From: a virus
Lineage: Duplodnaviria; Caudoviricetes
Length of the DNA stretch: 29,467 nt
Direction: 5' to 3' (one strand)
IMG/VR virus record: IMGVR_UViG_3300017746_000093
Location: 1 to 29,467 of that record
The notes under the pieces: generated by a model
What the model was told of the DNA's origin: nothing
What the model saw: only the letters and a program-made list of their open reading frames with translations
Database searches by the model: none
Position numbers and translations under genes: made by a program
Shown here: in pieces, positions 1 to 29,467 of the stretch
Layout: each line of letters opens with the position of its first letter
How positions within the stretch are numbered: the first letter of the stretch is position 1

Positions 1-911
1 AGATCAACATAATCAATTATAATTAAATCTGGTTTAGTTCCTAAATCCGTAACTTTACGGATGTGGGATTCAACTGTTGATATTGTTGCACGTCCTGTTG
101 GAAATTCTTTAATAATCAATTCACCTGGGATTTCAGGAATTATTTCTTCTATTTTTGACCTATTTTTAATAACTTGGTCTACTGGGATTTTACTGAAGAA
201 AGCATCATATCTTCTACCGACATACTCTTCACCTAACTCTAATGTGTAATGTAAAACATTATAACCCATTCTCACAGCATATCCTCCTAAAGCTACTAAA
301 CTCCATGATTTACCACCTCCTGGATTACCAAATATGAGACCAAAATCTCCATTTCCCAATCCACCTTGTAATATATCATTGATTCTTTCCCAAGGAGTTG
401 CAATAGTTGTTCTTGCATCTTCTCTAAAACGAGATTCAATATCTTTATTATATTCATGTCCTATATTTTTATCATTACCGGCTTTTAAAGCTGATTCTAC
501 TAAATGTTTAATCCCATCAAAATCTCCGGCTTTAAGCAAATCAACACTATTAAGTAATGCTTTTTTTAGTTGTTGGTTTTTACAAAATGTTGAAAATTCT
601 TCTCTAACATATTCTAAATCGTCATCAGATGACTCATAAGCTGCTTTTAACTGTTCTCTAATAGATAATCTTAAAACTTCATTATCAACTTTTTGCAGTT
701 CAACTTTTAGGATATCCATTGAAGGTGTAGTATGATATTTATCATAATACCTAATTATTTCTTTTATAATCCACTGGTGTGCCTGGTTATCCCAATATTC
801 TTCACTAATAATATCGTGTATATTAGTTAAAAACTCTTTATGGGTAAGTAATGATGATATTACTTTAATTTGGAAATGTGTACCATATTGATTTAAACTT
901 GTGAGGGTCAT
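1..911 (-). CDS. Replicative DNA helicase, DnaB/T4 gp41-like (3' end runs off window)
   Basis: Not in ORF track because there is no stop in the window. Manual translation from ATG at 911 (MTLTSLNQYG...) is open to position 1. It contains Walker A GNPGGGKS (~306-329), H1a YTLE and Walker B LIIIDYVD at the window edge. Confidence 0.9.
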   Translation of the reverse strand, partial: MTLTSLNQYGTHFQIKVISSLLTHKEFLTNIHDIISEEYWDNQAHQWIIKEIIRYYDKYHTTPSMDILKVELQKVDNEVLRLSIREQLKAAYESSDDDLEYVREEFSTFCKNQQLKKALLNSVDLLKAGDFDGIKHLVESALKAGNDKNIGHEYNKDIESRFREDARTTIATPWERINDILQGGLGNGDFGLIFGNPGGGKSWSLVALGGYAVRMGYNVLHYTLELGEEYVGRRYDAFFSKIPVDQVIKNRSKIEEIIPEIPGELIIKEFPTGRATISTVESHIRKVTDLGTKPDLIIIDYVD

Positions 912-933
912 ATAACTTTTATTTTATTTATTT

Positions 934-1959
934 TTATAACTTTAATTTTTCAAAAACATCTTTAACCCAAAACTCCACATTTCGGATCATACCACCTAAT
1001 TTATCTTCATTATAAAAGGCTATGAATTGGTCTGGAATATAATGATAGTCTTTGGATTTAACAATTTCAGATAAATATTTTTTATCATTTTCATCCAACA
1101 TAGGATTTGATAAATCCATTATTTTATAATTTTTCTCTAAATCATATATATTTTCGATTATCCTAGCATAAATAACATTTTCTTTAAATTTTCCTTCACA
1201 GATATTATATATATCATCTAATGACATATCTTTTTCACTTAATTCAGGGAATAACTTATAAAGCTTTTTTTCACCTAACCCTTTTACACCTTTAACTTTA
1301 TCAGAATTATCACCCATTAAAGTTTTATATAAGATAAAATTAGTAGGAGACATTTTGAATTTTTCTACTACTGTTTCTTCAGTATAAAATTCCTTTTCCA
1401 TAGGGCGGTACACAATTACATTCTCATTTACTAATTGTAGGAAATCTTTATCAGAAGAAACAATAAATACTTTATCTTTGGGTGATTGTGGAATAATATC
1501 TGATAAATAAGCAATAACATCATCAGCTTCAACTTTAGGTAATCCTATTGTTTTTACGGGTAATGTTTTTAAGTACTGGATTATTCTAACAATTTGATCT
1601 ACTTTAGCATCATCTTCATCATCTTTATTATCAAAAGCATCCCAATTAGTAATACGTTGTAAATCTCTTCCTGATTTATATTCAGGTAGTAAATTTTTTC
1701 TAGCATTTGCTGATCCAGCCCCATCAAATATTACATAAACTTGGGTAGGATCAACTCTTCGGATTTCAGCACCCAGTGAACGAAAAAATCCCCCTAAACC
1801 ACCAATATGAACCCCATCTGGGTTTACCATATTCATCATTGCAAAGTTCCTAAAGAATAGATTTAAACCATCTATCATTAATATTCTTTCTCCTTCTACA
1901 GTTTCCTTCCTGTTCTCATCAAGGTTATTGAGGAGTTCTAATAATTGTTTTTGTTTCAT
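934..1959 (-). CDS. 5'-3' exonuclease / flap endonuclease (Pol I N-terminal / T4 RNase H family)
   Basis: Motifs IDGLNLFFR, VIFDG, YKSGR, EADDVIAY, SSDKDFLQL and H3TH LMGDNSDKVKGVKGLGEK. Confidence 0.92.
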   Translation of the reverse strand: MKQKQLLELLNNLDENRKETVEGERILMIDGLNLFFRNFAMMNMVNPDGVHIGGLGGFFRSLGAEIRRVDPTQVYVIFDGAGSANARKNLLPEYKSGRDLQRITNWDAFDNKDDEDDAKVDQIVRIIQYLKTLPVKTIGLPKVEADDVIAYLSDIIPQSPKDKVFIVSSDKDFLQLVNENVIVYRPMEKEFYTEETVVEKFKMSPTNFILYKTLMGDNSDKVKGVKGLGEKKLYKLFPELSEKDMSLDDIYNICEGKFKENVIYARIIENIYDLEKNYKIMDLSNPMLDENDKKYLSEIVKSKDYHYIPDQFIAFYNEDKLGGMIRNVEFWVKDVFEKLKL

Positions 1960-1973
1960 TTAGATTATTTTTT

Positions 1974-2006
1974 ATGCCCGGAATATACGAAAAATACTCC
2001 AGGCAT
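1974..2006 (-). other. 13-bp stem-loop between recA and the exonuclease gene, overlapping a promoter
   Basis: Minus strand ATGCCTGGAGTAT-TTTTCGT-ATATTCCGGGCAT. It pairs fully only with two G:U wobbles on the mRNA strand and is followed by an A-run, not a U-run. Confidence 0.6.
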
Positions 2007-2010
2007 CAAA
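1982..2010 (-). promoter_or_regulatory. Putative host-RNAP (early/middle) promoter TTTG-N19-TATATT
   Basis: Same architecture as the copies at 3974, 5730 and 25466; intergenic, upstream of the exonuclease gene. Confidence 0.55.
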
Positions 2011-2012
2011 AT

Positions 2013-3089
2013 TTAATGTGGCTCGTCTGTATGAGAAGTAATATCAGTATAAGCTTGTTCTTCTTCTACTATCTGAAAGTCTCCACCACCTAGGATTTTC
2101 TTCCATTCATCTTTCATTTCATCCTTATATTCTTTTAAGGATTTATCAGTATCAAGTATAAACCCATGGGGGGTCATAACAATTTTACCTCTAGTAGTAA
2201 CACCATTAATATGGTTTTTATCAATTTGTAAATTAACTCGTTTAGCAAATTCAACCTGCTTACCATCTTTAATTGCTTTAATTTTAGATGTTCCAGCGTT
2301 TGAAATATTCCCAAATGTAACTACAAATGTTGAATCAAACCACATTGCAAACCCTCCTTTATTCATTAATTTAGGTTTACCCATAGGTGATTCTGCTTTT
2401 GCTGTCCATACTTTATTAATACACACAAGGGTATTAGTGTATGGGCTACTTTCTTTACGAGACAATACTATACGTTGGTTTACGCTATTACCAAATTGGG
2501 TAGACATTGCACCTGCATTCCACTCATTATTATTTTTATTTGATTTAATAGACATTTCACAAGGTACTGATCCTATTGAATCCCATAAGAATAATAAATC
2601 ATAAGGCAAATTACCTTTTTTCTGCTCATCAATTAAATCTAAAATAAAAACAGCTACATCTTCAATAGAATTAATAGTTTCTCTATCTACATAAATAAAA
2701 TTACCATTATAATCAACTATTTCACCTGTTTCTTTATCAACAACTTCATTTACTTCTAGTCCCATCTGCATAGCATGTTCCCAATTCCATTTCATCTCTG
2801 TAATAATAAATACAGGGAGTACTTTACGTTTTTGAGCTGATACAGCTGCTTCTAGTAATGCTGTAGTTTTACCTGTATCTGAATGACCTCTAAGTAAAAC
2901 AATATGTCCTGTTGGGATACCAGGGACTGAAGTAATTTCTTGATAAGCTTCAGAAAGAGGTATCCATTCTTGGTCTTTAAATTTAGCTTTAGATGTTAAA
3001 CCTTTTTTAGATTTAAACCCATCTAGGTTAAAATTTGCTTTAATTTCTGAGGAGACTGCCTCCGATAGTGATTTTTTCTTTCTTGCCAT
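2013..3089 (-). CDS. recA: RecA/UvsX-like recombinase
   Basis: PGIPTGHIVLLRG followed by Walker A GHSDTGKTT, catalytic Glu in IITEM, Walker B FLWDSIGS, LVCINKV and KGGFAMWFDS (RecA GGNALKFYAS equivalent). Confidence 0.9.
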   Translation of the reverse strand: MARKKKSLSEAVSSEIKANFNLDGFKSKKGLTSKAKFKDQEWIPLSEAYQEITSVPGIPTGHIVLLRGHSDTGKTTALLEAAVSAQKRKVLPVFIITEMKWNWEHAMQMGLEVNEVVDKETGEIVDYNGNFIYVDRETINSIEDVAVFILDLIDEQKKGNLPYDLLFLWDSIGSVPCEMSIKSNKNNNEWNAGAMSTQFGNSVNQRIVLSRKESSPYTNTLVCINKVWTAKAESPMGKPKLMNKGGFAMWFDSTFVVTFGNISNAGTSKIKAIKDGKQVEFAKRVNLQIDKNHINGVTTRGKIVMTPHGFILDTDKSLKEYKDEMKDEWKKILGGGDFQIVEEEQAYTDITSHTDEPH

Positions 3090-3099
3090 ATAACTTTAA

Positions 3100-3936
3100 T
3101 TAAAACGGTAAATCGTCAGTTTTATCATCATTAAATAAATCATCAAACTGTGCTGATTTAGATTTTTTTACATTTGTAGCTGTTGTATCTAATGAATAGT
3201 TAGATTTTTTAGTATCACTATCAAAAGCAACAGCAGGTTCTGAGACTATTGATCCTTCTTCTTCACTTCCTTCTGGAGCTAACCATTCTTGAAGAGCTTC
3301 TTTCATCTCATCATAAGTAAGTGGTTTAAATACTTTCATAGGATCAGCTTGGTCCTCTAAACATGATTTCACAACCTCAGAATCTTCTGCAATCGGGGAA
3401 GTTTTCATTGAAGGTCCAATTGATGTTTTGTTATATGGAGTACCTGTAACTTCAGGTCCTACAGTAGTTAATTTAATATCTCTACCTTGAGCCATATCAG
3501 TGTAATCACCAATTTCATCATCAGCAGCCATATTTAAAAATCCTTGATAAACTTCTTTACCAAACTGCCATAATTTAACTCCTTCACTTTCTTCACCTCT
3601 AACTACGATAGGAGCAAAAATACGTGTTTTTGGGTCTAACTTTTTAGCTAGTCTCCAGTTTTCTTTATCATTAGTCCCACGAAGTTGTTTAGCAAATTCC
3701 ATAATTGGATCTTTCTCACCCCAATTTGAAGGAGAAGCCATTACTCGCTTACTACCAATTCCATAATAGAATTTCATCTCTGTAAAAGGGAATTCTTTAT
3801 TGTACTTGTTAGGAACAACTCTTACGACTTGTTTACCTACTGACGGTTTCCAAAATAATTGTTTTCCTCCTCCTGAATTGTTAGAGGTTTGATTTTGCAT
3901 CTCTCCGAGACGCTTTTTAATTGCATTTAAATCCAT
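3100..3936 (-). CDS. Single-stranded DNA-binding protein, T4 gp32-like
   Basis: FWKP..GKQVVRVVP, GEKDPIME, GVKLWQFGKEVY, DYTD...GRDIKL and an acidic tail ending DDLPF; adjacent to recA. Confidence 0.8.
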   Translation of the reverse strand: MDLNAIKKRLGEMQNQTSNNSGGGKQLFWKPSVGKQVVRVVPNKYNKEFPFTEMKFYYGIGSKRVMASPSNWGEKDPIMEFAKQLRGTNDKENWRLAKKLDPKTRIFAPIVVRGEESEGVKLWQFGKEVYQGFLNMAADDEIGDYTDMAQGRDIKLTTVGPEVTGTPYNKTSIGPSMKTSPIAEDSEVVKSCLEDQADPMKVFKPLTYDEMKEALQEWLAPEGSEEEGSIVSEPAVAFDSDTKKSNYSLDTTATNVKKSKSAQFDDLFNDDKTDDLPF

Positions 3937-3973
3937 GTTTTATAACTTTTAATTTTAATTTAATAACGGTATT

Positions 3974-4002
3974 AATATAAGAACTTAGGTTTGGTATTCC
4001 AA
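3974..4002 (-). promoter_or_regulatory. Putative host-RNAP promoter TTGG-N19-TATATT upstream of the SSB gene
   Basis: Minus strand TTGGAATACCAAACCTAAGTTCTTATATT; overlapped by an inverted repeat at 3985-4007. Confidence 0.6.
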
Positions 4003-4003
4003 C

Positions 4004-4477
4004 CTAAAGTTCAATAATTTTGTGAATTTTCGTTTTTAGTTGTTTTAATTCATCATGTTGGGTGAGCAGAACTGTATTTCTATAATGTTGCCAGTCAATT
4101 GGAAATCTGGTGTCAACAACTCCCCCATTTAATTTTTTAATTAATTCATTTAGGGCATTTATAGTATACAATGTATTTGTATCTTTTTTTCTGTGCACCA
4201 TTATAGTATTAGGGGGCAAACCACCTGCATTGCCTTGTTCAATGTTGTAAGTACAAACATATTCATCATTACTTTTAATATGTAATACAAATATTTTATT
4301 GTACATTACATCATAGCTAGTAGTAATGTGGGATAATAACCCATCCAATTCTGCTAATGTTGTAAATGTGCAAAATAATTTATTATTCAAATCTGTTATA
4401 TTTAAGTTTTCGAACTCCTGAAAGTCGTCTACTGTATACATATTAACAGAATTATTTGAAATTGTAAGTGTCTCCAT
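4004..4477 (-). CDS. Hypothetical protein (true start may be ATG 4441 or TTG 4390)
   Basis: 157-aa ORF overlapping the PolA-like gene by 26 nt. Globular-looking core NNKLFCTF...HRKKDTNTLYTINALN. Confidence 0.7.
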   Translation of the reverse strand: METLTISNNSVNMYTVDDFQEFENLNITDLNNKLFCTFTTLAELDGLLSHITTSYDVMYNKIFVLHIKSNDEYVCTYNIEQGNAGGLPPNTIMVHRKKDTNTLYTINALNELIKKLNGGVVDTRFPIDWQHYRNTVLLTQHDELKQLKTKIHKIIEL

Positions 4478-5711
4478 AATTAGTTTTAATTTTTAATTTA
4501 TATTGTTTAAACAAATTTATAATACTTTCCATCACATCCTTTTCTTCTTTATCAAAATCAAAAAGAAAACTATCGTATGTGTAAAGTACTAATTTGGTCT
4601 TACAATTTTTTAATAGCTTTATTATTTCCCATAATATACAAACATTATATGCGGTCTCCAAATTTTGTAACAGATAATTTAAGAGTTTTTGAGGTTTCAT
4701 ATCACTTAACTCATCTTTGTAAAATATTTTTTTAGAAATAGGACATTCAATTGAGCCTTCATGTTGAAAACGATCCCACAAATCATCAGTATATACTGTC
4801 ATTTTTTTGAAAAACTCTAAATCTTTATATTGTTCAAACACCCCACCATACATTTGTTTAAATGTTAGTTCTTTAGCTTTTTTGTAATCCACTTTATACA
4901 TTTCTGCAAAGGCAGCGTGAATGTCTTCCTCCACAAAATCATAACCAACCAATTTAGCCAACAAAGTAGGATGATAAGCGGATATATCAATTTCAAACAA
5001 GCAATCATTACTTGCGATAAAACTTTCTCGACTGTCGTCATCTTTGGAAATAGCTGCATAATTTACTCCTTTAAATCTATTACTTGGTCTTCCTGTGAGG
5101 GTTTTGAAGTTGAATTGTGTGTAGGCATATTCTCCATCGATAGGGTGAAAGTACGATTCAAATTTTTCTCTATTAATTCGTATACCACTTCGCTCCACGG
5201 CGTTGAATACCACTGAGGCTTTTGTGTTGTAAAAGTCGTTGATTGGTTCATTTATTTTATTTTTTAAATCATGAAAAGTTTTTTCACAATATTCATAATG
5301 TTTTACTATCGGAATAATGCGGTTTATATCTATTTTATCACCCATCTTGCTATAGAAGTAGGAGTGGGTTTGTGTGTGTTCTTGTATATACGTACTCGAA
5401 TTGAGTGTTATGTCGAAGAGAGTTTTTAAAGGAAAATAGTGTAAAAATTCTTTTTTATCACGTACATATAACTTATTATATTTTGTTAATACGCGAGTAA
5501 TATTGTCTATATTAGTATTTAAAGTCTCACTATGCGAAATGGGTATTATAAATCCTTTTGTTGATAATAACGGACGAATATAAATAGCACAAACTTTATT
5601 TTGGGTTGGGTGTATTTTATTATTGTAGGGAATTATCTCTACAAATGCTTCTTTATAATTACTATTATAAAACCTTTTAAGTTGATCTTTAGACTCTACT
5701 AACCAAAACAT
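4452..5711 (-). CDS. Miniature, divergent family A DNA polymerase-like protein
   Basis: VERSGIRIN, TGRPSN, motif A FEIDISAYHP, motif B KKAKELTFKQMYG, NYLLQNLET and motif C LYTYDSFLFD. Degenerate 3'-5' exonuclease-like N-terminus; only 419 aa. Confidence 0.8.
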   Translation of the reverse strand: MFWLVESKDQLKRFYNSNYKEAFVEIIPYNNKIHPTQNKVCAIYIRPLLSTKGFIIPISHSETLNTNIDNITRVLTKYNKLYVRDKKEFLHYFPLKTLFDITLNSSTYIQEHTQTHSYFYSKMGDKIDINRIIPIVKHYEYCEKTFHDLKNKINEPINDFYNTKASVVFNAVERSGIRINREKFESYFHPIDGEYAYTQFNFKTLTGRPSNRFKGVNYAAISKDDDSRESFIASNDCLFEIDISAYHPTLLAKLVGYDFVEEDIHAAFAEMYKVDYKKAKELTFKQMYGGVFEQYKDLEFFKKMTVYTDDLWDRFQHEGSIECPISKKIFYKDELSDMKPQKLLNYLLQNLETAYNVCILWEIIKLLKNCKTKLVLYTYDSFLFDFDKEEKDVMESIINLFKQYKLKIKTNYGDTYNFK

Positions 5712-5729
5712 AACTATTACTTTATAGTT

Positions 5730-5759
5730 AATATAAAAAAAGGAAGTAGGGTATCCAAA
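5730..5759 (-). promoter_or_regulatory. Putative host-RNAP promoter TTTGG-N19-TATATT at the start of the replication block
   Basis: Minus strand TTTGGATACCCTACTTCCTTTTTTTATATT, 18 nt upstream of ATG 5711. Confidence 0.6.
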
Positions 5760-5775
5760 TTAAAATAACTTATTT

Positions 5776-6516
5776 TTAATTATAAGTATTTCGTTTTGGT
5801 TTGGTTGGTCTACGTTTAGCACTAAAGGAATTATTTGATTTTTTAACATTCATTAATTCTTCGGGGGCATAAAATTTTAAATAATCTTCCCTTAAAAACT
5901 CTCTTAAACCCTTTGTTTTAAAGAACTTTTCAGTTAGAAGAACAGAATTTCTATTAGTATTAGAAACATAATCTTCTTTTCCTTTTAAAGTCCATTGGAG
6001 TTTAATAGATTGGTATAAACGCCATTCCCATTTGTTATCTTTATTAAAAATACTATCATAAACCTCTTTATTTACTTCTACCCATTGAATCTCATTTCTT
6101 TTTACACAGAAATATCTAGTAAATACCCCTAAATCATAATCTTCTTTTGTTGGTTTTCTGTAAGTTATTTGAGGAATAAATCGTACTCCTTCTTGTAATT
6201 CACTAGAATTTAAATAATCTGCTATATCTTGCATCCCATCAACACTTTGATTTGGGAAAGGTGCAAAATCTGTAGTGACTGTTGTAAAAGAATAAGCATT
6301 ATTACTATCGGATGCTGCATATATTTGATCTTCTGAAGTATCTGAGTCTAAAAGAAGGAGATTTGGGGGGTCATTTTGTGTTTTTCCTGTATATTTTTCC
6401 CCAGTATATAACTCATAATAATAACCCACATAATCTTCATTAGTACCCTCTATCATGTACCTCCCCCCAGGAGTGTATTGGTTTGTTTTTATTTTATTAC
6501 TTGGTATATAAGCCAT
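5776..6516 (-). CDS. Hypothetical protein, last gene of the tail/baseplate module
   Basis: 246-aa ORF, Tyr-rich N-terminus (YVGYYYELYTGEKYTGK), basic C-terminus; assignment rests on position only. Confidence 0.7.
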   Translation of the reverse strand: MAYIPSNKIKTNQYTPGGRYMIEGTNEDYVGYYYELYTGEKYTGKTQNDPPNLLLLDSDTSEDQIYAASDSNNAYSFTTVTTDFAPFPNQSVDGMQDIADYLNSSELQEGVRFIPQITYRKPTKEDYDLGVFTRYFCVKRNEIQWVEVNKEVYDSIFNKDNKWEWRLYQSIKLQWTLKGKEDYVSNTNRNSVLLTEKFFKTKGLREFLREDYLKFYAPEELMNVKKSNNSFSAKRRPTKPKRNTYN

Positions 6517-6537
6517 TTTTATCTTTATTTATGGTTT

Positions 6538-9500
6538 TTATATTAAACCTTTTGATAATGCAAGGTTATAAGGAGTTTGTGGGTTTGTTGGGCTACCAAA
6601 CAATGAAGGTAAACCTCCATCAGGAACACCTCCTAAGTTTACTATTTCCATCTTGAAAAATGCATCTGTATATGCGGTATTGGTGGGTTTATGTAGCAGG
6701 CTAATAAGTTGTGCATTTGCTGCGGTTGTTTCTTGTAATGAAGGTTGTAACCACCCTCCCCCAGTTCCTGTATTTTCTTTGCTAGTATTTCCAGGTTGGA
6801 GTATATTCCCAGAATTAAATTTAAAACTAGGAGCAATACACCCAGCTAACCAGTTTTGAGCAACTGGGGCTTCATGAATTAATACATGCTTCCTTATGTA
6901 CCCATTACCATAAATTTGATTTGCTGCAAAATTACCTGCTTCGTTACCCTCTAATCGAAATGCTTTGTTATTATTTGCTTTTGGTTCTCCTTTTGGACGA
7001 CGGTAATTATTTCTAACAAGATAATTACCTGATGGTACACAACTAATATTATTTTGATTACCTAACCATGGTAATTCTACAGTTGCAAAAGTTGCTAACA
7101 CTGTTGTCTCATCCTCAGCAAATACCTCCATAATACCTAAAGTTTGACCATTTCCATATGTTTCAGGTGGTACTTGTCTATTAAACCCATAAATTCTTGT
7201 TAATCTTATTCTTAATTTTGCATAATTTTCATAAATTTCTTGTAATGTCTCATTACCTTCTGGGGGTTGGGGGAATCCTCCAGATTCTCCAGCAATGTAA
7301 ACTGGGGTGTTATCTTCTAAAGGAGGAGGTGCTTGTATTGGACCTAATGCTCTACTTTCAGGAACCGATAATGTTTCAAATTCAGTAGTCCACCCCGCAA
7401 CATCAATGTTATGATTCAACCCTGTTAATTGTAAACCAACTCCATCTTTTTCATAAGAAGGTGGAAGTATTTCATCATTTATTTTAAATTTTTGATAAAG
7501 TTTAGGCCCACTTATCCCATCCATTGTTAATTTTAAATTAAAAGGGAGGAAAAATGGAGCTGGGAGTTGGGGTTCACCTTCTGAATTGGAATTAGTGAGG
7601 ATTCCTAATGCTAAAGAAATGGCTTCAGACATATTATTTTTATAGGCATCTATTTCTTCCTTATTATATACGGATGTATCGTACATTGAATTAAATATTG
7701 GAGCCATAGCTACTAAAATATTAGCTACTTGTTTCTTTTTAGGAATAGTAGCATTAGAACCTGCAGCAAAAGATTCTAAATCTGGGGAACTAACCTTTAC
7801 AGGAGTAACTCTATCTATTAACCCAGCATTATAATTTGAAAAAGAAGTAGCATCAGCTGAAACTTGATTACCATTAGCTTGGGCGCCTATTGAAATCATA
7901 GTAGCAAAATCATTTGATAAATCTGCTGTGAGACTAACATCTCTTACAAAACTACCTTCTATTCCTGGTTTTACCCCATAGGCTATTAATTTGGTAAATC
8001 CTGTTTTTTCCTCATCAAACCTTTGAGGAATATCTTCTATAATTTTAATTTTTAAACCATCTTGAGATATTTTAAAACGAAATTTATTTATACTACCCAT
8101 AGACTCAATCATCATATCTGTTATATTTCCAAGAAAATCTAGTAGTTTAATATTACCATTTTCATCAGGTTTCATACTTGATAGTATATTACTTATTTCT
8201 TGGGTAGCAATATATACATTTGCAATTCTTCCTAAATATTGGCTTTTTACATTATTATAAAACCCACATTGTTCTTCAGACAAATTAGTATTTATTAGGG
8301 TATTTTTATACCCAATTACACCTCCAGATTCATCTTTAAATGAAAAATTTCTATAAGGTATAAGTAATTTTTGAGGTTCAGTTGAAATCTGCCCCGGAAT
8401 GTTTAGTATAAAATTATCATCATTAGGTAAATCTCTAAAATTCATATCAAATTCTAAATCAGGAATACCATACTCATCATAAAGAAATAAGTTTCTTTGA
8501 ACCCAAGCTAAAAGGAAACCAAATTTCATATACACCCTTGGGTTTTGATCAAGACCAGCATCCCCCCGTGAGTTTGTTAAAAAAAATAAAGCTCCTTTAA
8601 AAACTACCTGATCATCGCTTGATATATTATCGTTAAAATTAAATAATGTTGAATCTGAAAAACCAACTTGTTTCTTTTTAAATCCTTTACCTCCTAGGCT
8701 AGCGTATCCATCTAATATCCTTTGATATTCATTGAATAAAAAATTATCTAATAAAGATTTTGCTGCATTAGCTACTAAAACAGGAGCAAATTGTTTACCT
8801 GGAATTATTTTTGATGAATCTTTTTTTCTTATATTTTGGTACTCTTCTGTTTGTTTTTTAACAGATGCTGCTTCTTTACTTAATTCACCTGAAAATGAAA
8901 TATTTGATTTTAAGGATTCAAATACATCGCCTACGGCTGTTAATTGGATTTGACAATCATAACTCCCATCAGGGTTAAATTGCCAATTAAATTTAGTTAC
9001 TCTACCAAGAATAGCTTCATAATTTCCATTAGTTGTTCTTCTATGGTCTGAAATAAGACTTGATATTTGTGCAACTGTTTTGGTACCATTTAAAAATCCT
9101 GAAGCCGGTAAAGAAAGATTTGTATCTGCTGAGGTGAGTTCTTTATTATTATTTAAATATACACTATGACCAAACTCTAATAATAGAGTGTAACCTGGTC
9201 TCATGTACAAAACATCTATCAAGCTAAATTGTTTTTTAGAAAAACATTTTATATTAATTACAGTTTTACTTAATGCCCCATTATTATAATAAGTTATATT
9301 AGCGTTTGTTATTCCTGGTAATGGGACATATCCTCGTTCTGATATACCTCCCCAACCATAAGCTCCATTTAAACCACCATTAGACAATCCTGCTTCGGGC
9401 ATTGAAGATGATGAATTAATTGTTCCTCCTTGAAGAATGCAAGATTTTGCTAATTTTTCACCTGAAATATCATTTTCATTAATTCCAGATGCTACTAATT

Positions 9501-9705
9501 TTTTTAATACTGAAGATGATAATTCATTATTATCAGAACCTCTATTGGTTAAATTAACAGAACTCATTAATTTTAAGAAGGGTGCCTTAGTAGTAAAAGA
9601 TAATAAATCCTTTTCTGATATATTCCCATACTTTCCAAGAGCTTCCTGGCGGACTTCAATCTGGGTTTTGACGTAATCATCAAAAGGTTCTCCTAATATA
9701 TTCAT
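6538..9705 (-). CDS. Baseplate hub-like protein with C-terminal DUF5675-like His/Cys (putative peptidoglycan-acting) domain
   Basis: Follows the TMP, tube-like and LysM genes. Hub-like segments PGYTLLLEFG, GRVTKFNWQFNPDGSYDC, LKLTMDGISG and LNHNIDVAGWTT. C-terminal TVELPWLGNQNNISCVPSGNY...HVLIHE...LAGCIAP. Confidence 0.65.
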   Translation of the reverse strand: MNILGEPFDDYVKTQIEVRQEALGKYGNISEKDLLSFTTKAPFLKLMSSVNLTNRGSDNNELSSSVLKKLVASGINENDISGEKLAKSCILQGGTINSSSSMPEAGLSNGGLNGAYGWGGISERGYVPLPGITNANITYYNNGALSKTVINIKCFSKKQFSLIDVLYMRPGYTLLLEFGHSVYLNNNKELTSADTNLSLPASGFLNGTKTVAQISSLISDHRRTTNGNYEAILGRVTKFNWQFNPDGSYDCQIQLTAVGDVFESLKSNISFSGELSKEAASVKKQTEEYQNIRKKDSSKIIPGKQFAPVLVANAAKSLLDNFLFNEYQRILDGYASLGGKGFKKKQVGFSDSTLFNFNDNISSDDQVVFKGALFFLTNSRGDAGLDQNPRVYMKFGFLLAWVQRNLFLYDEYGIPDLEFDMNFRDLPNDDNFILNIPGQISTEPQKLLIPYRNFSFKDESGGVIGYKNTLINTNLSEEQCGFYNNVKSQYLGRIANVYIATQEISNILSSMKPDENGNIKLLDFLGNITDMMIESMGSINKFRFKISQDGLKIKIIEDIPQRFDEEKTGFTKLIAYGVKPGIEGSFVRDVSLTADLSNDFATMISIGAQANGNQVSADATSFSNYNAGLIDRVTPVKVSSPDLESFAAGSNATIPKKKQVANILVAMAPIFNSMYDTSVYNKEEIDAYKNNMSEAISLALGILTNSNSEGEPQLPAPFFLPFNLKLTMDGISGPKLYQKFKINDEILPPSYEKDGVGLQLTGLNHNIDVAGWTTEFETLSVPESRALGPIQAPPPLEDNTPVYIAGESGGFPQPPEGNETLQEIYENYAKLRIRLTRIYGFNRQVPPETYGNGQTLGIMEVFAEDETTVLATFATVELPWLGNQNNISCVPSGNYLVRNNYRRPKGEPKANNNKAFRLEGNEAGNFAANQIYGNGYIRKHVLIHEAPVAQNWLAGCIAPSFKFNSGNILQPGNTSKENTGTGGGWLQPSLQETTAANAQLISLLHKPTNTAYTDAFFKMEIVNLGGVPDGGLPSLFGSPTNPQTPYNLALSKGLI

Positions 9706-19936: not shown

Positions 19937-21133
19937 AAAACTTTTTAATAATTGATTGTTTATAGAATTTATTACTAAATCGGGTGTTATTGATTTAGTA
20001 CACTCAAACATCCTATCTGTATCTTTATGGTCAGGACACCACTCCCAATCCCCACCGTTTAACCTTATTCTATTAAAACATCCTGAGCATTTGTTTTTGG
20101 GAGGAGATATTCTTTCGCAATCTTCAAATTCACTATAGGCTTCACTAAATCCAGATATCATAACTACAGGTGTTTCTAAAGCCCAAGCTAACCAACTTAA
20201 ACCACTTCCAATACCTATAAATGCTTTAGCATTCATTATATCATTTGCTCTTTCACTTAGAGGGTGGTTACCTGTTTTATCAATAACCCCTGTTAAAGTA
20301 CCTCCTAATTTAGAATCATGCCACTTATCTCCTAAGGGTTCTTGGGTAATCATTACTACTTTGTAGCCTTTATTATTTAAATAATTTATTACAGTTTGCC
20401 ATCCATCTTTTCGATTCCAATACTTAACATGAGCTGAACCATGAGGTGCTATAACCACATAATCACCTTCTATAGTAGATCCTGTATTTTTAAATGTTAG
20501 TTTAGGTTTAATTTCTTTTGATTCTAGTCCTAAAATGCTATAGGCTGCCCCTTGTAATGGAATTTTTCTAAAGTCTAAAGGATTTCTATTATAATCAATT
20601 TTTTCTTCTTCATTATAATGCCACCCTACCTCATACATAGCATATAAATCCTTTTGGATAGTTCCAGGTTCAATAAATTCAATGTTTGAGTAATTTTCTT
20701 CAAACATTTTATTATGGAATGTTGATACAATTAATCTACATTTATGTTTTTTTCTAAATTCTTCGGCATATGGCATCCACGCTATAGTATCACCTAAAGC
20801 TTTTGAAGCAAAGTGTATATAAACTTTTTTATCCCCTGCATTAAATGTATGTTCTATTATTTCATTAGTTTCTAAATCTATTATTTTAATTAAACAATCA
20901 ATATGGTATTGTTTATTTAGTTTAGACCACATATTATTACTTATTTCGGTTTCATGAAGAAGTTTATTTGTGTTTCTATCGATAAACTGAACTTTATATT
21001 TTTTCTTTATATCCCCTAAAATTTCAATTTTAGCCCCATTAACAAAAGTGCTATAAATATTATTTGTGGGAAATAAAGATTTAATTGGTTTTTTAATTAA
21101 ATTATTATATTCTTTTACTAAAATTTCTTTCAT
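19934..21133 (-). CDS. Autotransporter O-heptosyltransferase-like protein (TibC/AAH, BAHT family; GT9-related)
   Basis: SKALGDTIAW (putative catalytic Asp115), KYW, FIGIGSGLSWLAWA, PVVMISGFS...EF, and a four-Cys iron-finger-like motif C349-x2-C352-x13-C366-x11-C378 (CSGC, WCPDH, FECTKSI). Confidence 0.85.
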   Translation of the reverse strand: MKEILVKEYNNLIKKPIKSLFPTNNIYSTFVNGAKIEILGDIKKKYKVQFIDRNTNKLLHETEISNNMWSKLNKQYHIDCLIKIIDLETNEIIEHTFNAGDKKVYIHFASKALGDTIAWMPYAEEFRKKHKCRLIVSTFHNKMFEENYSNIEFIEPGTIQKDLYAMYEVGWHYNEEEKIDYNRNPLDFRKIPLQGAAYSILGLESKEIKPKLTFKNTGSTIEGDYVVIAPHGSAHVKYWNRKDGWQTVINYLNNKGYKVVMITQEPLGDKWHDSKLGGTLTGVIDKTGNHPLSERANDIMNAKAFIGIGSGLSWLAWALETPVVMISGFSEAYSEFEDCERISPPKNKCSGCFNRIRLNGGDWEWCPDHKDTDRMFECTKSITPDLVINSINNQLLKSF

Positions 21134-21768
21134 ACCATTAAATAATCGTTAGTTGCGGTTTGTTTTAAAATTATTTTATATCCTAATTTTTCCAAATAGG
21201 AGACTGCTGTTTTTTTATTATCTTCTAACCATATTAGAGGTTTATATTTTAATATAGTTTCTTTCATACCCTCAAAAGCAGATAATTCATGGCCTTCTAT
21301 ATCAATTTTGATAAATTTAATAGGTTCAGGGAAAGAAATTGAATCTAAAGCCATAACTAAATTAGTAATATTACCATTAGGGACAACTTTTACTACTCCT
21401 GAGTTTTTTTCTTCTTCACCCCCAAAATGGACCATTGAATTATTACTTCCTACCCCCACATTAAAACAATGAACATCATTATACCTATCAGTATTAGTTT
21501 TTAATAGGTTATAATTTTCAAAAAAAGGTTCAAAAGCCCATATTTTTAAATCAGGAAAATAATGTTTAAATTGTACACAATGAGCACCTATATTAGCTCC
21601 AATATCTAACATTAATCCTTCTTTTGGAAAGTATTGTTTAAAACAGTTAAACAAATTAAATTCCCAAAAATCATTATATTTAACTATATCATCTGATATG
21701 CATTCAGGCCCCTCAAATATCATCATAGGGGTATTTTTTATACTAACTAAACGGGTATTACGTTTCAT
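21130..21768 (-). CDS. FkbM family SAM-dependent methyltransferase
   Basis: MLDIGANIG, WAFEP, IKFIKIDIEGHE and KPLIWLE. Confidence 0.9.
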   Translation of the reverse strand: MKRNTRLVSIKNTPMMIFEGPECISDDIVKYNDFWEFNLFNCFKQYFPKEGLMLDIGANIGAHCVQFKHYFPDLKIWAFEPFFENYNLLKTNTDRYNDVHCFNVGVGSNNSMVHFGGEEEKNSGVVKVVPNGNITNLVMALDSISFPEPIKFIKIDIEGHELSAFEGMKETILKYKPLIWLEDNKKTAVSYLEKLGYKIILKQTATNDYLMV

Positions 21769-22724
21769 ATATGATTTTTATATATTTTAATTAATTCTTT
21801 TGTTCTATTTAACCAAGATAAATTAGTAGCTGTTTCTAAACCTTTTTCTCTATAATCAGACCAAATATTTAAAATATCTTTTAAACCCTTATCCATTTCA
21901 AAAATATTACGGGGTGATCTCCAACATCCATGTAAATCAACTTCCATTTCCCAATCAGCAATAACAGGTAACCCAGCAGCTAAAGCTTCTAACATTGTTA
22001 AATTAGGATGTCCTGCTTCTAACATTGTAGGGTGGATAAAAATATCATGGTGGTGGTATAAATCAAGGAGTTTAGTATTAGGTGTATCAAATACCAAATT
22101 TAATTTAGGGTAGTTTAACATCCAAATGTGATTATTAAAAAAGTTTTTATTATTAGAAGGCCCAGCTATAGTAATTTCTAAATTATTAATCATAGCTAAA
22201 CCTAAACCATATTCAAATCCTTTTCTGTCAAAGGCTTCATCTCCCCCTAAACCATTATTAGCTAACATTAGTAACTTTGGGTTTGAAGGGGTTGGTTTTA
22301 TAATTTCTTTAGGATAAAACTCATCAATATTAACCCCATGAGAAAAATAAACACATTTAGGGTGATTAAAATAATCAACTAACCAATTAGCAGGCATTAA
22401 AGATATTAATGAACCTTCAATTGCCTCTAGATTTTCTTTGTATACATTGGAATTTGGACCATAATGTAAAACATGATGATCATGTAATTGGTAGATATAG
22501 GGTATACCCCTTTCTCTTAAACCTTTAGTTAAATTAGCCACATGGCAGTGTACAATATCAAACTCTCCAGGTTGGATTTTAGCTTCTAATTTGTGGGTAG
22601 AATTATGACCTAATAATGTTTGGTTTATTTCAAACTCCCAAATAATTTTTTCTATTGCTCCCCAATTTTTAGGGGGTATATTTAAACCACAAGCTGGGTC
22701 TACATGACATATATTTAATTTCAT
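21765..22724 (-). CDS. Glycosyltransferase, GT-B/GT4-like
   Basis: IPPKNWGAIEK, DIVHCH, HGVNIDEF, DRKG, DIFIHPTMLEAGHPNLTMLEALAAGLPVI. Confidence 0.85.
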   Translation of the reverse strand: MKLNICHVDPACGLNIPPKNWGAIEKIIWEFEINQTLLGHNSTHKLEAKIQPGEFDIVHCHVANLTKGLRERGIPYIYQLHDHHVLHYGPNSNVYKENLEAIEGSLISLMPANWLVDYFNHPKCVYFSHGVNIDEFYPKEIIKPTPSNPKLLMLANNGLGGDEAFDRKGFEYGLGLAMINNLEITIAGPSNNKNFFNNHIWMLNYPKLNLVFDTPNTKLLDLYHHHDIFIHPTMLEAGHPNLTMLEALAAGLPVIADWEMEVDLHGCWRSPRNIFEMDKGLKDILNIWSDYREKGLETATNLSWLNRTKELIKIYKNHI

Positions 22725-26788: not shown

Positions 26789-29467
26789 TTAAGCAAGTTC
26801 AATCCAAGTATTATCAGGACATATATAATATAACCTATTAGATCCACTTACATATATTTCATACCCAACTATTCTAACAATATCTCCTGAGGTTGTTGGA
26901 GCTGAAGATTGTCCATTCCCAGCTGATGTAGTTGATAGATAAAAAGGTTCTCCACCTCCTAACCCCCATGATTTTGTTGTTCTAAACATTCCTCTTATTA
27001 AAACTCCATCTAATGTTGGGTTAGTACCTAAAGAAATACCCATTATTCCAGTTGAAGTAGCAACATCATCACCTTGGGCTTTATACCAAAATCCTTGATC
27101 CAAAACTAGAATATCTCCAAAAGCTGGAGTAGTTCCTCCATTACCTTTACCAGTAAATATAATTTCACCACTTTGGTTGTTTACTGCTGAAGGAACTGAG
27201 TATTCTATATTTCCTGAGTTACTGGTTCTATCTTGTCCTAATCTAAATGGATTATTAATACTAAGAGTTCTACTTGTATCTAGTGTATTTGAAGTAGCTC
27301 CATCAATTAACAAATCATTTTGAGTAGTGATTGTAATTGAAGCACCTGACCCACCTACGACACCACTTGAACCTGAAGTACCTGCTGAACCTGATGAACC
27401 ACTTGTATTACTTAATCCTGAAGTACCTGAGGTACCTGCTGAACCTGATCCTCCCGATACTCCACCAGCTCCACCTATACCACTTGACCCTGTTGAACCT
27501 GAAGTACCTGAAGTGTTACTTGTTGCACTTCCACCCCCAGTACCTACAACACCATTTGTACCTGATGAACCACTTGAACCTGAAGTATTACTTGTTTTAC
27601 TATTTCCAGCAGCACCTGCAGTACCTGAAGATCCTGCTGAACCACTTGATCCTGAAGTATTACTTGAAGCACTAGCTCCTGCTGCACCACTAGTACCACT
27701 TGAACCTCCTGAACCTGATGTTGCGCTTATGTTACTAGATCCTGCTACGCCTGCATTACCTGAAGTACCTGAAGAACCTCCTGAACCTGATGTTGCGCTC
27801 ACATTACTTGAACCTGCATTACCTGCATCTCCTGATGTACCTGATGATCCTCCTGAACCTGAAGTGTTACTTAAAGCACTTGCTCCAGCATTACCAGCAT
27901 TACCTGAAGTACCTGTTGAACCTGATGAACCACTTGTATTACTTGAAGCACTTGCTCCCGCATTACCTGAGGTACCTGAAGAACCTCCTGATCCTGAAGT
28001 AGCACTTACATTACTTTCTCCTGCTACACCTGCATTTCCACTTGTACCACTTGATCCTCCTGATCCTGATGTTGCACTTACATTACTTGAACCTGCTACA
28101 CCTGCGTCTCCTGAAGTACCACTTGATCCTCCTGAACCTGAAGTAGCACTTATGTTACTTGAACCTGCTACACCTGCGTTACCTGAAGTACCTGAAGAAC
28201 CTCCTGAACCCGAAGTGTTACTTAAAGCACTTGCTCCAGCATTACCAGCATTACCTGATGTACCACTTGTTCCTGAAGAACCATTTGAACCACTTTCTGC
28301 ACTTTCACCATTTCCACCTATAATACCAGTTGTACCTGATGAACCACTTGAACCTGATGTTGCACTTACATTACTTGAACCTGCTACACCTGCGTCTCCA
28401 CTTGTACCACTTGATCCTCCTGAACCTGAAGTAGCACTTACATTACTTGAACCTGCATTACCTGCATCACCATTAGTACCGCTTGATCCTCCTGAACCTG
28501 ATGTTGCGCTTATATTACTTGAACCTGCTACGCCTGCACCACCTGAAGTACCTGAAGAACCTCCTGATCCTGAAGTAGCACTTATGTTACTAGATCCTGC
28601 TACACCTGCGTCTCCTGAAGTACCACTTGAACCTCCTGAACCTGATGTTGCACTTACATTACTTGAACCTGCTACACCTGCGTTACCTGAAGTACCGCTT
28701 GATCCTCCTGAACCTGATGTTGCGCTTATATTACTTGAACCTGCATTACCTGCATCTCCTGATGTACCTGATGATCCTCCTGAACCTGAAGTAGCACTTA
28801 TCCCTGAAGTACCATCATCACCTGATGTACCTGAGGAACCTGAAGTGTTACTTAAACCTGATTGACCGGCATCACCATTAGTACCGCTTGAACCACTTGA
28901 ACCTGATGTATTACTTGAAGCACTTGCTCCCGCATCACCAGCATTACCTGAAGTACCACTTGATCCTCCTGAACCTGATGTTGCGCTTATGTTACTTTCT
29001 CCTGCTACACCTGCGTTACCTGAAGTACCTGAAGAACCTCCTGATCCTGAAGTAGCACTTACATTACTTGAACCTGCTACACCTGCGTCTCCTGAAGTAC
29101 CTGAAGAACCTTCTGAACCTGAAGTTGCGCTTAAAGCACTAAGCCCTGCTGTACCTGCATCTCCTGATGTACCTGAAGATCCTGAAGATCCTGATGTATT
29201 ACTAGATGTACTAGCTCCTGCTGTACCGTCATCACCTGATGTACCTGAGGAACCTGATGAACCGCTTGTATCACTTGAAGCACTTGCTCCCGCATTACCT
29301 GAAGTACCACTTGATCCTCCTGAACCTGATGTTGCGCTTATGTTACTTTCTCCTGCTACACCTGCGTCTCCTGAAGTACCACTTGATCCTCCTGAACCTG
29401 AGGTAGCACTTACATTACTTTCTCCTGCTACACCAGCATTACCTGATGTACCGCTTGATCCTCCTGA
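26789..29467 (-). CDS. Giant Gly/Ser/Thr/Ala-repeat fibre-like protein with globular C-terminal domain (5' end off window; at least 892 aa)
   Basis: The frame of ORF 26789..27802 stays open without stops to 29467, so GTG 27802 is internal. About 710 aa of repeats, then ~185 aa of non-repetitive sequence (WYKAQGD..STGIMGISLG..GVLIRG..PFYLSTTSAG..APTTSGDIVRIVGY). Confidence 0.85.
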   Translation of the reverse strand, partial: SGGSSGTSGNAGVAGESNVSATSGSGGSSGTSGDAGVAGESNISATSGSGGSSGTSGNAGASASSDTSGSSGSSGTSGDDGTAGASTSSNTSGSSGSSGTSGDAGTAGLSALSATSGSEGSSGTSGDAGVAGSSNVSATSGSGGSSGTSGNAGVAGESNISATSGSGGSSGTSGNAGDAGASASSNTSGSSGSSGTNGDAGQSGLSNTSGSSGTSGDDGTSGISATSGSGGSSGTSGDAGNAGSSNISATSGSGGSSGTSGNAGVAGSSNVSATSGSGGSSGTSGDAGVAGSSNISATSGSGGSSGTSGGAGVAGSSNISATSGSGGSSGTNGDAGNAGSSNVSATSGSGGSSGTSGDAGVAGSSNVSATSGSSGSSGTTGIIGGNGESAESGSNGSSGTSGTSGNAGNAGASALSNTSGSGGSSGTSGNAGVAGSSNISATSGSGGSSGTSGDAGVAGSSNVSATSGSGGSSGTSGNAGVAGESNVSATSGSGGSSGTSGNAGASASSNTSGSSGSTGTSGNAGNAGASALSNTSGSGGSSGTSGDAGNAGSSNVSATSGSGGSSGTSGNAGVAGSSNISATSGSGGSSGTSGAAGASASSNTSGSSGSAGSSGTAGAAGNSKTSNTSGSSGSSGTNGVVGTGGGSATSNTSGTSGSTGSSGIGGAGGVSGGSGSAGTSGTSGLSNTSGSSGSAGTSGSSGVVGGSGASITITTQNDLLIDGATSNTLDTSRTLSINNPFRLGQDRTSNSGNIEYSVPSAVNNQSGEIIFTGKGNGGTTPAFGDILVLDQGFWYKAQGDDVATSTGIMGISLGTNPTLDGVLIRGMFRTTKSWGLGGGEPFYLSTTSAGNGQSSAPTTSGDIVRIVGYEIYVSGSNRLYYICPDNTWIELA
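27340..29467 (-). repeat. Coding tandem repeat, 72-bp / 24-aa unit SATSGSGGSSGTSG(N/D)AGVAGSSN(V/I), about 30 degenerate units
   Basis: Read directly; includes a 63-bp exact duplicate at 27803-27865 and 28730-28792. Confidence 0.95.

Follow-up and report, generated by a model that had tools for sequence, protein, structure and literature searches.

A thumb-truncated family A (Pol I-like) polymerase of the divPolA1 group and a linked small protein at the head of a phage replication-recombination gene module

Divergent family A DNA polymerases are encoded by some bacteriophages alongside polymerases of regular type. The group closest to the gene considered here is divPolA1, the name given to the group of phage vB_FspM_immuto (hereafter immuto) in a computational description by Yutin, Tolstoy, Mutz, Wolf, Krupovic and Koonin ('Jumping DNA polymerases in bacteriophages', Virol J 2024;21:200; PMC11348598; preprint 10.1101/2024.04.26.591309). 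According to the text of that paper, the catalytic residues of the palm are conserved in divPolA1, the thumb is truncated, and all three catalytic aspartates of the exonuclease are replaced (Yutin et al. 2024, PMC11348598). The 14 phages reported there to carry divPolA1 also encode a regular PolA, PolB or PolC, and replication genes are conserved downstream of divPolA1. The same text describes divPolA2 of barbaviruses, also a divergent PolA found beside a regular PolB and without a standard thumb, which has an unrelated N-terminal globular domain, a variable neighbourhood and fold matches to RNA polymerases (PMC11348598). Here we describe a gene at positions 4452..5711 on the minus strand (TAA stop at 4452-4454) of a 29,467-nt stretch of DNA from a tailed virus (Duplodnaviria; Caudoviricetes), positions 1 to 29,467 of IMG/VR record IMGVR_UViG_3300017746_000093; the whole of this stretch is referred to as the window. 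Judged by its sequence, the 419-aa product of this open reading frame (ORF) is a further member of divPolA1, and so it is not new in kind. Its exonuclease-like domain and the constant set of replication genes around it set it apart from divPolA2. Taken on its own, the window yields an ordinary finding, a further copy of a published family; the points of interest are a near-invariant histidine at the gate position, the loss of the glutamate of motif C, and a linked small protein, p157.

Six records were matched by the 419-aa protein in a tblastn search of 50,697 phage records. They comprise all four vB_FspM_immuto records, whose gp001, annotated 'DNA polymerase family A' and the type member of divPolA1, is 38.2% identical over 98% coverage (E 1e-86), together with an uncultured 484-kb phage (29.6%) and Microcystis phage Mel-JY01 (28.2%). 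With gp001 the window protein shares the truncated thumb, an exonuclease-like domain predicted to lack the catalytic carboxylates and the kept palm residues. It also shares a genomic place, at the head of genes for a single-strand DNA-binding protein (SSB), a recombinase, a 5'-3' exonuclease (FEN) and a helicase, with tail and lysin genes upstream in both. The two differ in that the window copy belongs to an uncultured marine clade which has PolB as its regular polymerase, whereas immuto has PolA. Among the literature matches listed for the term divPolA1 there are only the preprint and the paper of Yutin and colleagues. The terms 'steric gate', 'histidine', 'motif C' and 'ribonucleotide' have no occurrence in the main text of PMC11348598, although its figures and supplements may show the residues concerned.

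The family is far larger than the 14 phages given in that text. A search of 1.84 billion cluster representatives returned 1125 relatives at E <= 0.001, 447 of them at E <= 1e-30, a family of 1125 clusters at 50% identity. The 150 best relatives are 383-471 aa long, apart from some shorter and mostly partial entries. About 4400 IMG/VR stretches hold one motif C peptide pattern, and 594 of the 600 examined encode a relative. Among rows drawn from 15 studies, near-identical copies of the gene were found in 14 metagenome runs of marine, seawater or viral type, one of which may be the window's own source. Conservation was assessed throughout on an alignment of the window protein with 135 relatives that are 30-56% identical to it (136 sequences in all).

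When the 136-member profile was compared with the PDB, 57 sequences matched and every one was a family A DNA polymerase, the best being the Klenow fragment (E 3.4e-9). Pfam model PF00476 detects 21 of 60 family representatives at E <= 0.01 and 7 of the 60 above its curated cut-off; the immuto divPolA1 scores 43.9 bits on it. An AlphaFold2 model built from the 136-sequence alignment has a predicted local distance difference test score (pLDDT) of 97.0 and a predicted template modelling score of 0.94. VIA-align places the Bst Pol I large fragment on it with Z 26.8 and a root-mean-square deviation of 3.4 Å over 387 of 419 residues, and the best 50 rows of that comparison are all Pol I large fragments. 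The best 50 Foldseek rows are likewise all family A DNA polymerases (E 1.1e-16), and RNA polymerases are absent from the best 50 rows of either comparison. By this model, then, the 419-aa protein has the fold of the Pol I large fragment, with palm and fingers set on an exonuclease-like domain. The match to the large fragments (Klenow, Bst, KlenTaq) runs over the whole length and includes equivalents of motifs A, B and C and of R668 and Q849.

In the family-profile alignment motifs A, B and C are in register with Klenow, and the pairing of individual residues bears out what a first-pass annotation of this DNA, made from the letters alone, had proposed for the active site. Its residue numbers proved exact when checked by script: G176 (in ERSGIRIN), T206 and R208 (in TGRPS), D242, H247, Y276, K280, F284, Y288 and D380 (in YDSF). 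The alignment pairs D242 with Klenow D705, H247 with E710, Y276 with R754, K280 with K758, F284 with F762, Y288 with Y766, Q349 with Q849, and Y379-D380-S381 with H881-D882-E883; Klenow R668 also has its equivalent here. Motif A forms a strand and helix at aa 237-255 (4947..5003, minus strand), with the catalytic D242 at 4986-4988 and His247 at 4971-4973. The alignment and the model place motif B, the O-helix, at aa 276-289 (4845..4886, minus), where it contains Y276, K280, F284, Y288 and G289, and a motif C hairpin carrying Y379-D380-S381-F382 at aa 373-386 (4554..4595, minus), with D380 at 4572-4574. As that annotation held, the catalytic aspartates and the conserved contacts are kept: R208, D242, K280, E352 and D380 are invariant in all 136 sequences, Q349 is kept in 135, Y288 in 132 and F284 in 125.

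Measured against Pol I, the differences are a histidine for E710, a tyrosine or variable residue for R754, a tyrosine for H881, and a serine or alanine for E883. Glu710 is termed the canonical steric-gate residue of Pol I in the text of PMC13369328, and the regular PolA of immuto has glutamate at this position. Across the divPolA1 alignment position 247 is His in 134 sequences and Gln in two. Position 379 is Tyr in 133 and Phe in three, and position 381, directly after the motif C aspartate, is Ser in 98, Ala in 36 and Gly in two, but never Glu. Position 276 is much less constrained (Tyr 88, Ile 16, Arg 15, Val 4), and Phe382 is replaced by Ile in 31 sequences, so that 'DSF' is not fixed across the family. 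His247 and the YDS features are therefore family-wide and not a matter of chance. Because they are conserved across 136 sequences, the change of the gate residue and the loss of the glutamate after the motif C aspartate are hallmarks of the family, which the tyrosine at the R754 position is not. Two of these features resemble T7 RNA polymerase, as the first-pass annotation had correctly noted for HDSF: that enzyme, the product of gene 1, reads H811-D812-S813-F814 and so has the Asp-Ser-Phe of the 419-aa protein, and it also has a gate residue other than glutamate, Gly542, five residues after D537. Since three active-site positions differ from those of Pol I and T7 RNA polymerase also lacks the motif C glutamate, synthesis of DNA only is an assumption here.

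The thumb is essentially deleted, as had been claimed from the spacing of two motifs. By manual count from the alignment, 30 residues separate the glycine from the threonine here, compared with 122 in Pol I, and some 92 thumb residues are absent. Profile positions 199-204 correspond to Klenow-chain positions 234-324, a gap that falls at the thumb. What the model retains is a stub at aa 181-205 (5097..5171, minus strand), a single seven-residue helix (181-187) and loops, set against about 120 residues in Pol I. Compared with Klenow, the fingers too are reduced: D242 and K280 are 38 residues apart rather than 53, and K280 and Q349 are 69 apart rather than 91 (again counted manually from the alignment), which leaves about 37 finger residues absent relative to the Pol I large fragment.

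The N-terminal 152 residues (aa 1-152; 5256..5711, minus) form a 3'-5' exonuclease-like domain, with the model aligning to the Pol I large fragment from residue 1, and this domain is predicted to be inactive, as are its counterparts in Bst and Taq. The earlier statement that it has no clear acidic motifs holds in part. The candidate Exo I positions are not conserved as acidic residues (E25 is Glu in 39 of 136 sequences, and I27 is Ile in 111), but E6, H34, H60, E62 and E140 are conserved, and together with K87, N130 and K137 they make up a conserved polar set within aa 1-152. The counts among the 136 sequences are 129 for H34, 134 for H60, 136 for E62 (Glu or Asp), 124 for K87 and 129 for N130. 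These residues hint that the domain does something else than a classic DEDD site, and perhaps offers a surface for binding.

Directly downstream of the polymerase lies p157, an unnamed gene for a 157-aa protein (4004..4477, minus strand), the start of which overlaps the 3' end of the polymerase gene by 26 nt. Of 138 loci collected, which include a few contigs present twice, 132 encode the polymerase; in 128 of these there is room downstream for a further gene. A p157 homolog follows directly in 127 of the 128, and in most cases it starts ahead of the polymerase stop codon with an overlap of 7-22 nt (from tblastn coordinates). The sole locus without a match (L126) has two small ORFs after the polymerase and its contig ends 740 nt further on, so that it does not amount to a true exception. 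Conservation of p157 exceeds that of the polymerase in 103 of 105 loci, with identities to the window proteins of 56% and 38%, respectively, in immuto and of 41% and 28% in Mel-JY01. The pair stays adjacent even in a sub-clade (L023, L024 and L026; L026:4661-7486) where about 2.8 kb of small ORFs part p157 from the SSB gene; none of the seven such ORFs in L026 has a Pfam match.

All 8000 of the 8000 candidates scored in the search with p157 are homologs of it, and none has a functional name or a Pfam domain. The p157 protein of the window itself has no PHROG or Pfam match and no usable match in the ESM Atlas, and its best match among PDB sequences (E 0.019) is unrelated. Its model contains a fair ferredoxin-like core at aa 31-90, and the most conserved stretch, the basic segment at aa 91-135 (isoelectric point 9.7), is predicted below a pLDDT of 50. 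Among 48,161 chains no fold relative stands out, the best (Z 5.8) being generic ferredoxin-like domains that lie within the noise. The idea that p157 is a detached thumb found no support when its profile was compared with the full-length immuto PolA (probability 0.09%). Six longer ORFs contain p157 sequence, each of them a single-member cluster: P0271 and P0275 combine polymerase and p157, P0272 combines FEN, the C-terminal end of the polymerase and p157, and P0274 combines p157 and SSB, while no other window protein was matched by P0273 or P0276. Frameshifts or faulty assembly may have produced these fused ORFs, and we did not count them as evidence. Parts of the polymerase and p157 genes are matched by contigs from four marine RNA-seq runs, all but one without a difference, and a 770-nt RNA-library contig spans 3900-4487, taking in the whole of p157 together with the final 33 nt of the polymerase gene. 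RNA-library contigs can contain DNA, and these matches are no proof of transcription or co-transcription. The tight genomic linkage and the conservation point to p157 as a probable, undescribed accessory subunit of the polymerase.

Beyond p157 the minus strand continues into a set of replication and recombination genes. These encode a gp32-like SSB (3100..3936, minus; PF08804 E 1.8e-14, phrog_1192), a RecA/UvsX-like recombinase (2013..3089, minus; phrog_97 and phrog_8337, a weak PF00154 match, and an immuto homolog annotated as recombinase), a FEN-type 5'-3' exonuclease like the N-terminal domain of Pol I (934..1959, minus; PF02739 E 1.2e-33, PF01367, phrog_107), and a DnaB-like replicative helicase that is cut by the left end of the window (3..911, minus; phrog_19 E 2.9e-53, with an immuto homolog annotated as replicative DNA helicase). 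The 5'-3' nuclease, a domain of the polymerase chain in Pol I, is thus encoded here by a separate gene three genes downstream. The same order of polymerase, small protein, SSB, recombinase, 5'-3' exonuclease and DnaB is found in immuto and in 50 IMG/VR loci. A promoter and terminator scan of positions 1-7000 gave no excess over shuffled sequence (35 against 39.6 +/- 8.0, and 2 against 2.4 +/- 1.6).

A regular polymerase is also encoded by relatives whose records are long or complete. Among ten related IMG/VR records, PolB scores above the Pfam cut-off in five (G001, G002, G006, G008 and G010), in each of them 19-26 kb downstream of divPolA1 and on the same strand. The five records without a PolB match are fragments estimated to be 14-74% complete, and the sole record that is at least 90% complete (G006, 96%) has PolB. 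In the window, the equivalent place would fall beyond the left end. No regular PolA was found in the ten records, the sole matches being sub-threshold ones, in two of five records, to the divPolA1 gene itself; PolC was not found in five related records. Immuto encodes a 778-aa PolA and Mel-JY01 an 855-aa PolB frame, and a regular polymerase is thereby kept in all three of the complete or near-complete relatives examined (immuto, Mel-JY01 and G006). A DnaG-type primase is annotated in immuto (gp091) and was found in two (G006 and G007) of four long records searched. The regular PolB of the relatives looks split or interrupted in several cases (G002:C1:29434-30914, G001:C1:79158-79835 and G010:C1:58577-60848), with the Pfam match falling in two frames in G002 and G010 (about 570-580 aa and 318 aa) and one TGA inside the match in G001 and G010. 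In immuto, GroES and GroEL adjoin the regular PolA, and the record (L003, 18607-37015) holds a set of 7-deazaguanine DNA modification genes, DpdA, QueC, QueD, QueE, QueF and FolE.

On this evidence we consider it reasonably probable that divPolA1 is an active accessory DNA polymerase of the replication-recombination module, likely working with p157. It is predicted to be an active, non-proofreading and poorly processive second DNA polymerase. Activity is likely, to judge from the sequences, because the catalytic and contact residues are kept in the 136 members and the family extends to 1125 clusters. DNA would be made by the usual two-metal mechanism at D242 and D380, with the kept contacts supplied by K280, F284 and Y288 of the O-helix and by R208 and Q349 in the minor groove of the primer/template. 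The thumb of Pol I grips the duplex product and confers processivity, and because it is missing here the enzyme alone would have a weak hold on duplex DNA and extend a primer only briefly each time it binds; it would not proofread. Its task would then be short-patch synthesis, for which the neighbouring genes suggest two settings. One is the filling of gaps at the ends of Okazaki fragments together with the neighbouring FEN, the two acting as a split Taq-like Pol I; the other is the extension of intermediates that the recombinase and SSB encoded nearby produce during recombination. We see no basis for a choice between them. In either setting p157 would be the partner of the polymerase. The first-pass annotation had also considered one half of a split enzyme, and p157, given its adjoining gene, would be the candidate for the other half. 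T7 DNA polymerase, another family A enzyme, needs a small separate protein, thioredoxin, for processivity, and thioredoxin binds a loop of an intact thumb. For a possible role of p157 this is an analogy only, as the thumb is missing here and p157 has no known fold relative.

Several observations weigh against the proposal of an active accessory polymerase. Taken alone, in single-sequence searches, the 419-aa protein has no Pfam, PHROG or PDB match. Three active-site positions are unlike those of every Pol I-type DNA polymerase compared (His for Glu710, a variable residue for Arg754, and Ser or Ala for Glu883), and the N-terminal domain retains the conserved histidine and acidic residues named above. 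The monomer model of p157 is poor (pLDDT 58.8). The window's record, a fragment estimated to be 18% complete, contains no PF00476 or PF00136 match, so that a second polymerase in this very phage would have to be supposed from its relatives; a separate polymerase, which the first-pass annotation had proposed to look for, was thus found as PolB or PolA in the relatives and not in the window's own record. No assay of any divPolA1 member was found in the literature under the family name. Finally, the context of divPolA1 is one of conserved replication genes, whereas the 'regular' polymerases lie amid diverse genes according to the text of Yutin et al. (PMC11348598), and this contrast would also fit divPolA1 as the core replicase. 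In that scenario divPolA1 and p157 would form a two-subunit replicase in which p157 supplies DNA grip or processivity in trans, and the swappable PolA, PolB and PolC would be auxiliary. Other features agree with it: divPolA1 heads the conserved module of SSB, recombinase, FEN and helicase while the regular polymerases are 19-26 kb away; the context of the latter is described as functionally diverse in the text of PMC11348598; p157 is always linked to the polymerase and more conserved than it; its aa 91-135, most conserved yet worst modelled, could belong to a part of the protein that takes up its fold upon contact with a partner; and polymerase and p157 sequence run on in a single frame in three singleton ORFs. 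Those ORFs are, however, single-member clusters that may be errors, p157 resembles neither a thumb nor any known processivity factor, a genome of about 150 kb would not usually be copied by a replicase that lacks proofreading, and all three complete or near-complete relatives keep a regular polymerase. We therefore regard a core replicase as unlikely, and the earlier judgement that the protein is 'not the replicase' finds support in the sense that it is probably not the only polymerase. A bolder version is distinctly unlikely: that p157 replaces the thumb in trans in a two-subunit polymerase, that this enzyme, and none of the interchangeable PolA, PolB and PolC, is at the conserved core of DNA synthesis in a highly abundant group of marine myoviruses, and that in addition the near-invariant gate histidine gives a relaxed or different sugar selectivity, for example by allowing the enzyme to start from or insert ribonucleotides.

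The altered gate could also be taken to mark an enzyme that uses ribonucleotides as such, whether an RNA polymerase, a primase-like initiator, or an enzyme that makes or lengthens primers of RNA or mixed composition, and a reading of this primase-like or RNA-synthesising kind had been offered in the first-pass annotation. Histidine does replace the canonical steric-gate glutamate in 134 of the 136 sequences, the residue after the motif C aspartate is Ser or Ala and never Glu, as in the HDSF of T7 RNA polymerase, and an RNA polymerase reading has been raised for divPolA2, the other divergent group, in the text of PMC11348598. The case does not hold up well. DNA polymerases account for all 57 profile matches and fill the best 50 rows in each of the two fold comparisons. 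T7 RNA polymerase is 883 residues long against 419 here, and the N-terminal domain of the 419-aa protein has an exonuclease-like fold and not that of an RNA polymerase promoter-binding domain. F284 and Y288, which serve sugar selection in Pol I, are kept, and the bulky histidine may itself still block a 2'-OH. A direct comparison of the family profile with T7 RNA polymerase gave an hhalign probability of 0.1%, a weak test since the method is insensitive with a single-sequence target and a true PolA reached only 0.3% though aligned in register. Relatives with long records have both a regular polymerase and a DnaG-type primase, and a primase or replicase role is therefore not needed. We hold the ribonucleotide interpretation to be very improbable. 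Improbable too, though a little less so, is a polymerase adapted to templates or nucleotides that are damaged or modified, engaged in translesion-type synthesis or in copying modified phage DNA. The lack of proofreading, the reduced thumb and the trimmed fingers would suit such an enzyme, as would the 7-deazaguanine modification genes of immuto (DpdA, QueC, QueD, QueE and QueF), but the window has no modification genes, and the fixed neighbours are replication and recombination genes and not repair genes. A catalytically dead polymerase fold that acts as a replisome scaffold would account for the loss of the exonuclease site and thumb, and would fit the absence of a Pfam match for the 419-aa protein; it is scarcely credible when both catalytic aspartates, the O-helix lysine and R208 are invariant in 136 of 136 sequences, residues that a scaffold would not need.

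The window as a whole is a 29.5-kb fragment with a G+C content of about 30%. Nearly all genes are on the minus strand, on which tail fibre, sheath, tube and baseplate genes are followed by genes for a 1055-aa protein with a DUF5675-like end and a 246-aa protein, and then by the 419-aa polymerase. The 1055-aa protein (6538-9705, minus) carries the DUF5675 / phrog_1501 region at its C-terminus; it matches immuto gp033, annotated as a carboxypeptidase, in position and weakly in sequence (23%), and a tail-associated lysin is its probable identity. Amid the structural genes, at 21130-22724 (minus), lie two that resemble genes for a methyltransferase (phrog_8156) and a glycosyltransferase (phrog_2170), and DNA modification genes were not found in the window. 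The right end of the window cuts a long tail-fibre ORF (26789-29467, minus), which has collagen-like PHROG matches and a G+C content of 42-46% compared with about 30% elsewhere. A 512-aa ORF antisense to it (27327-28865) is probably an artefact of repeat coding.

The divPolA1 family is abundant, and it represents a natural form of Pol I without thumb and proofreading that has a near-invariant histidine at the position of ribonucleotide exclusion. A Pol I stripped down in this way, with histidine as its gate, could show what part of the Pol I scaffold synthesis depends on, and by what other means the choice of sugar can be set. It is also plausible that divPolA1 could serve as a compact enzyme for biotechnology.

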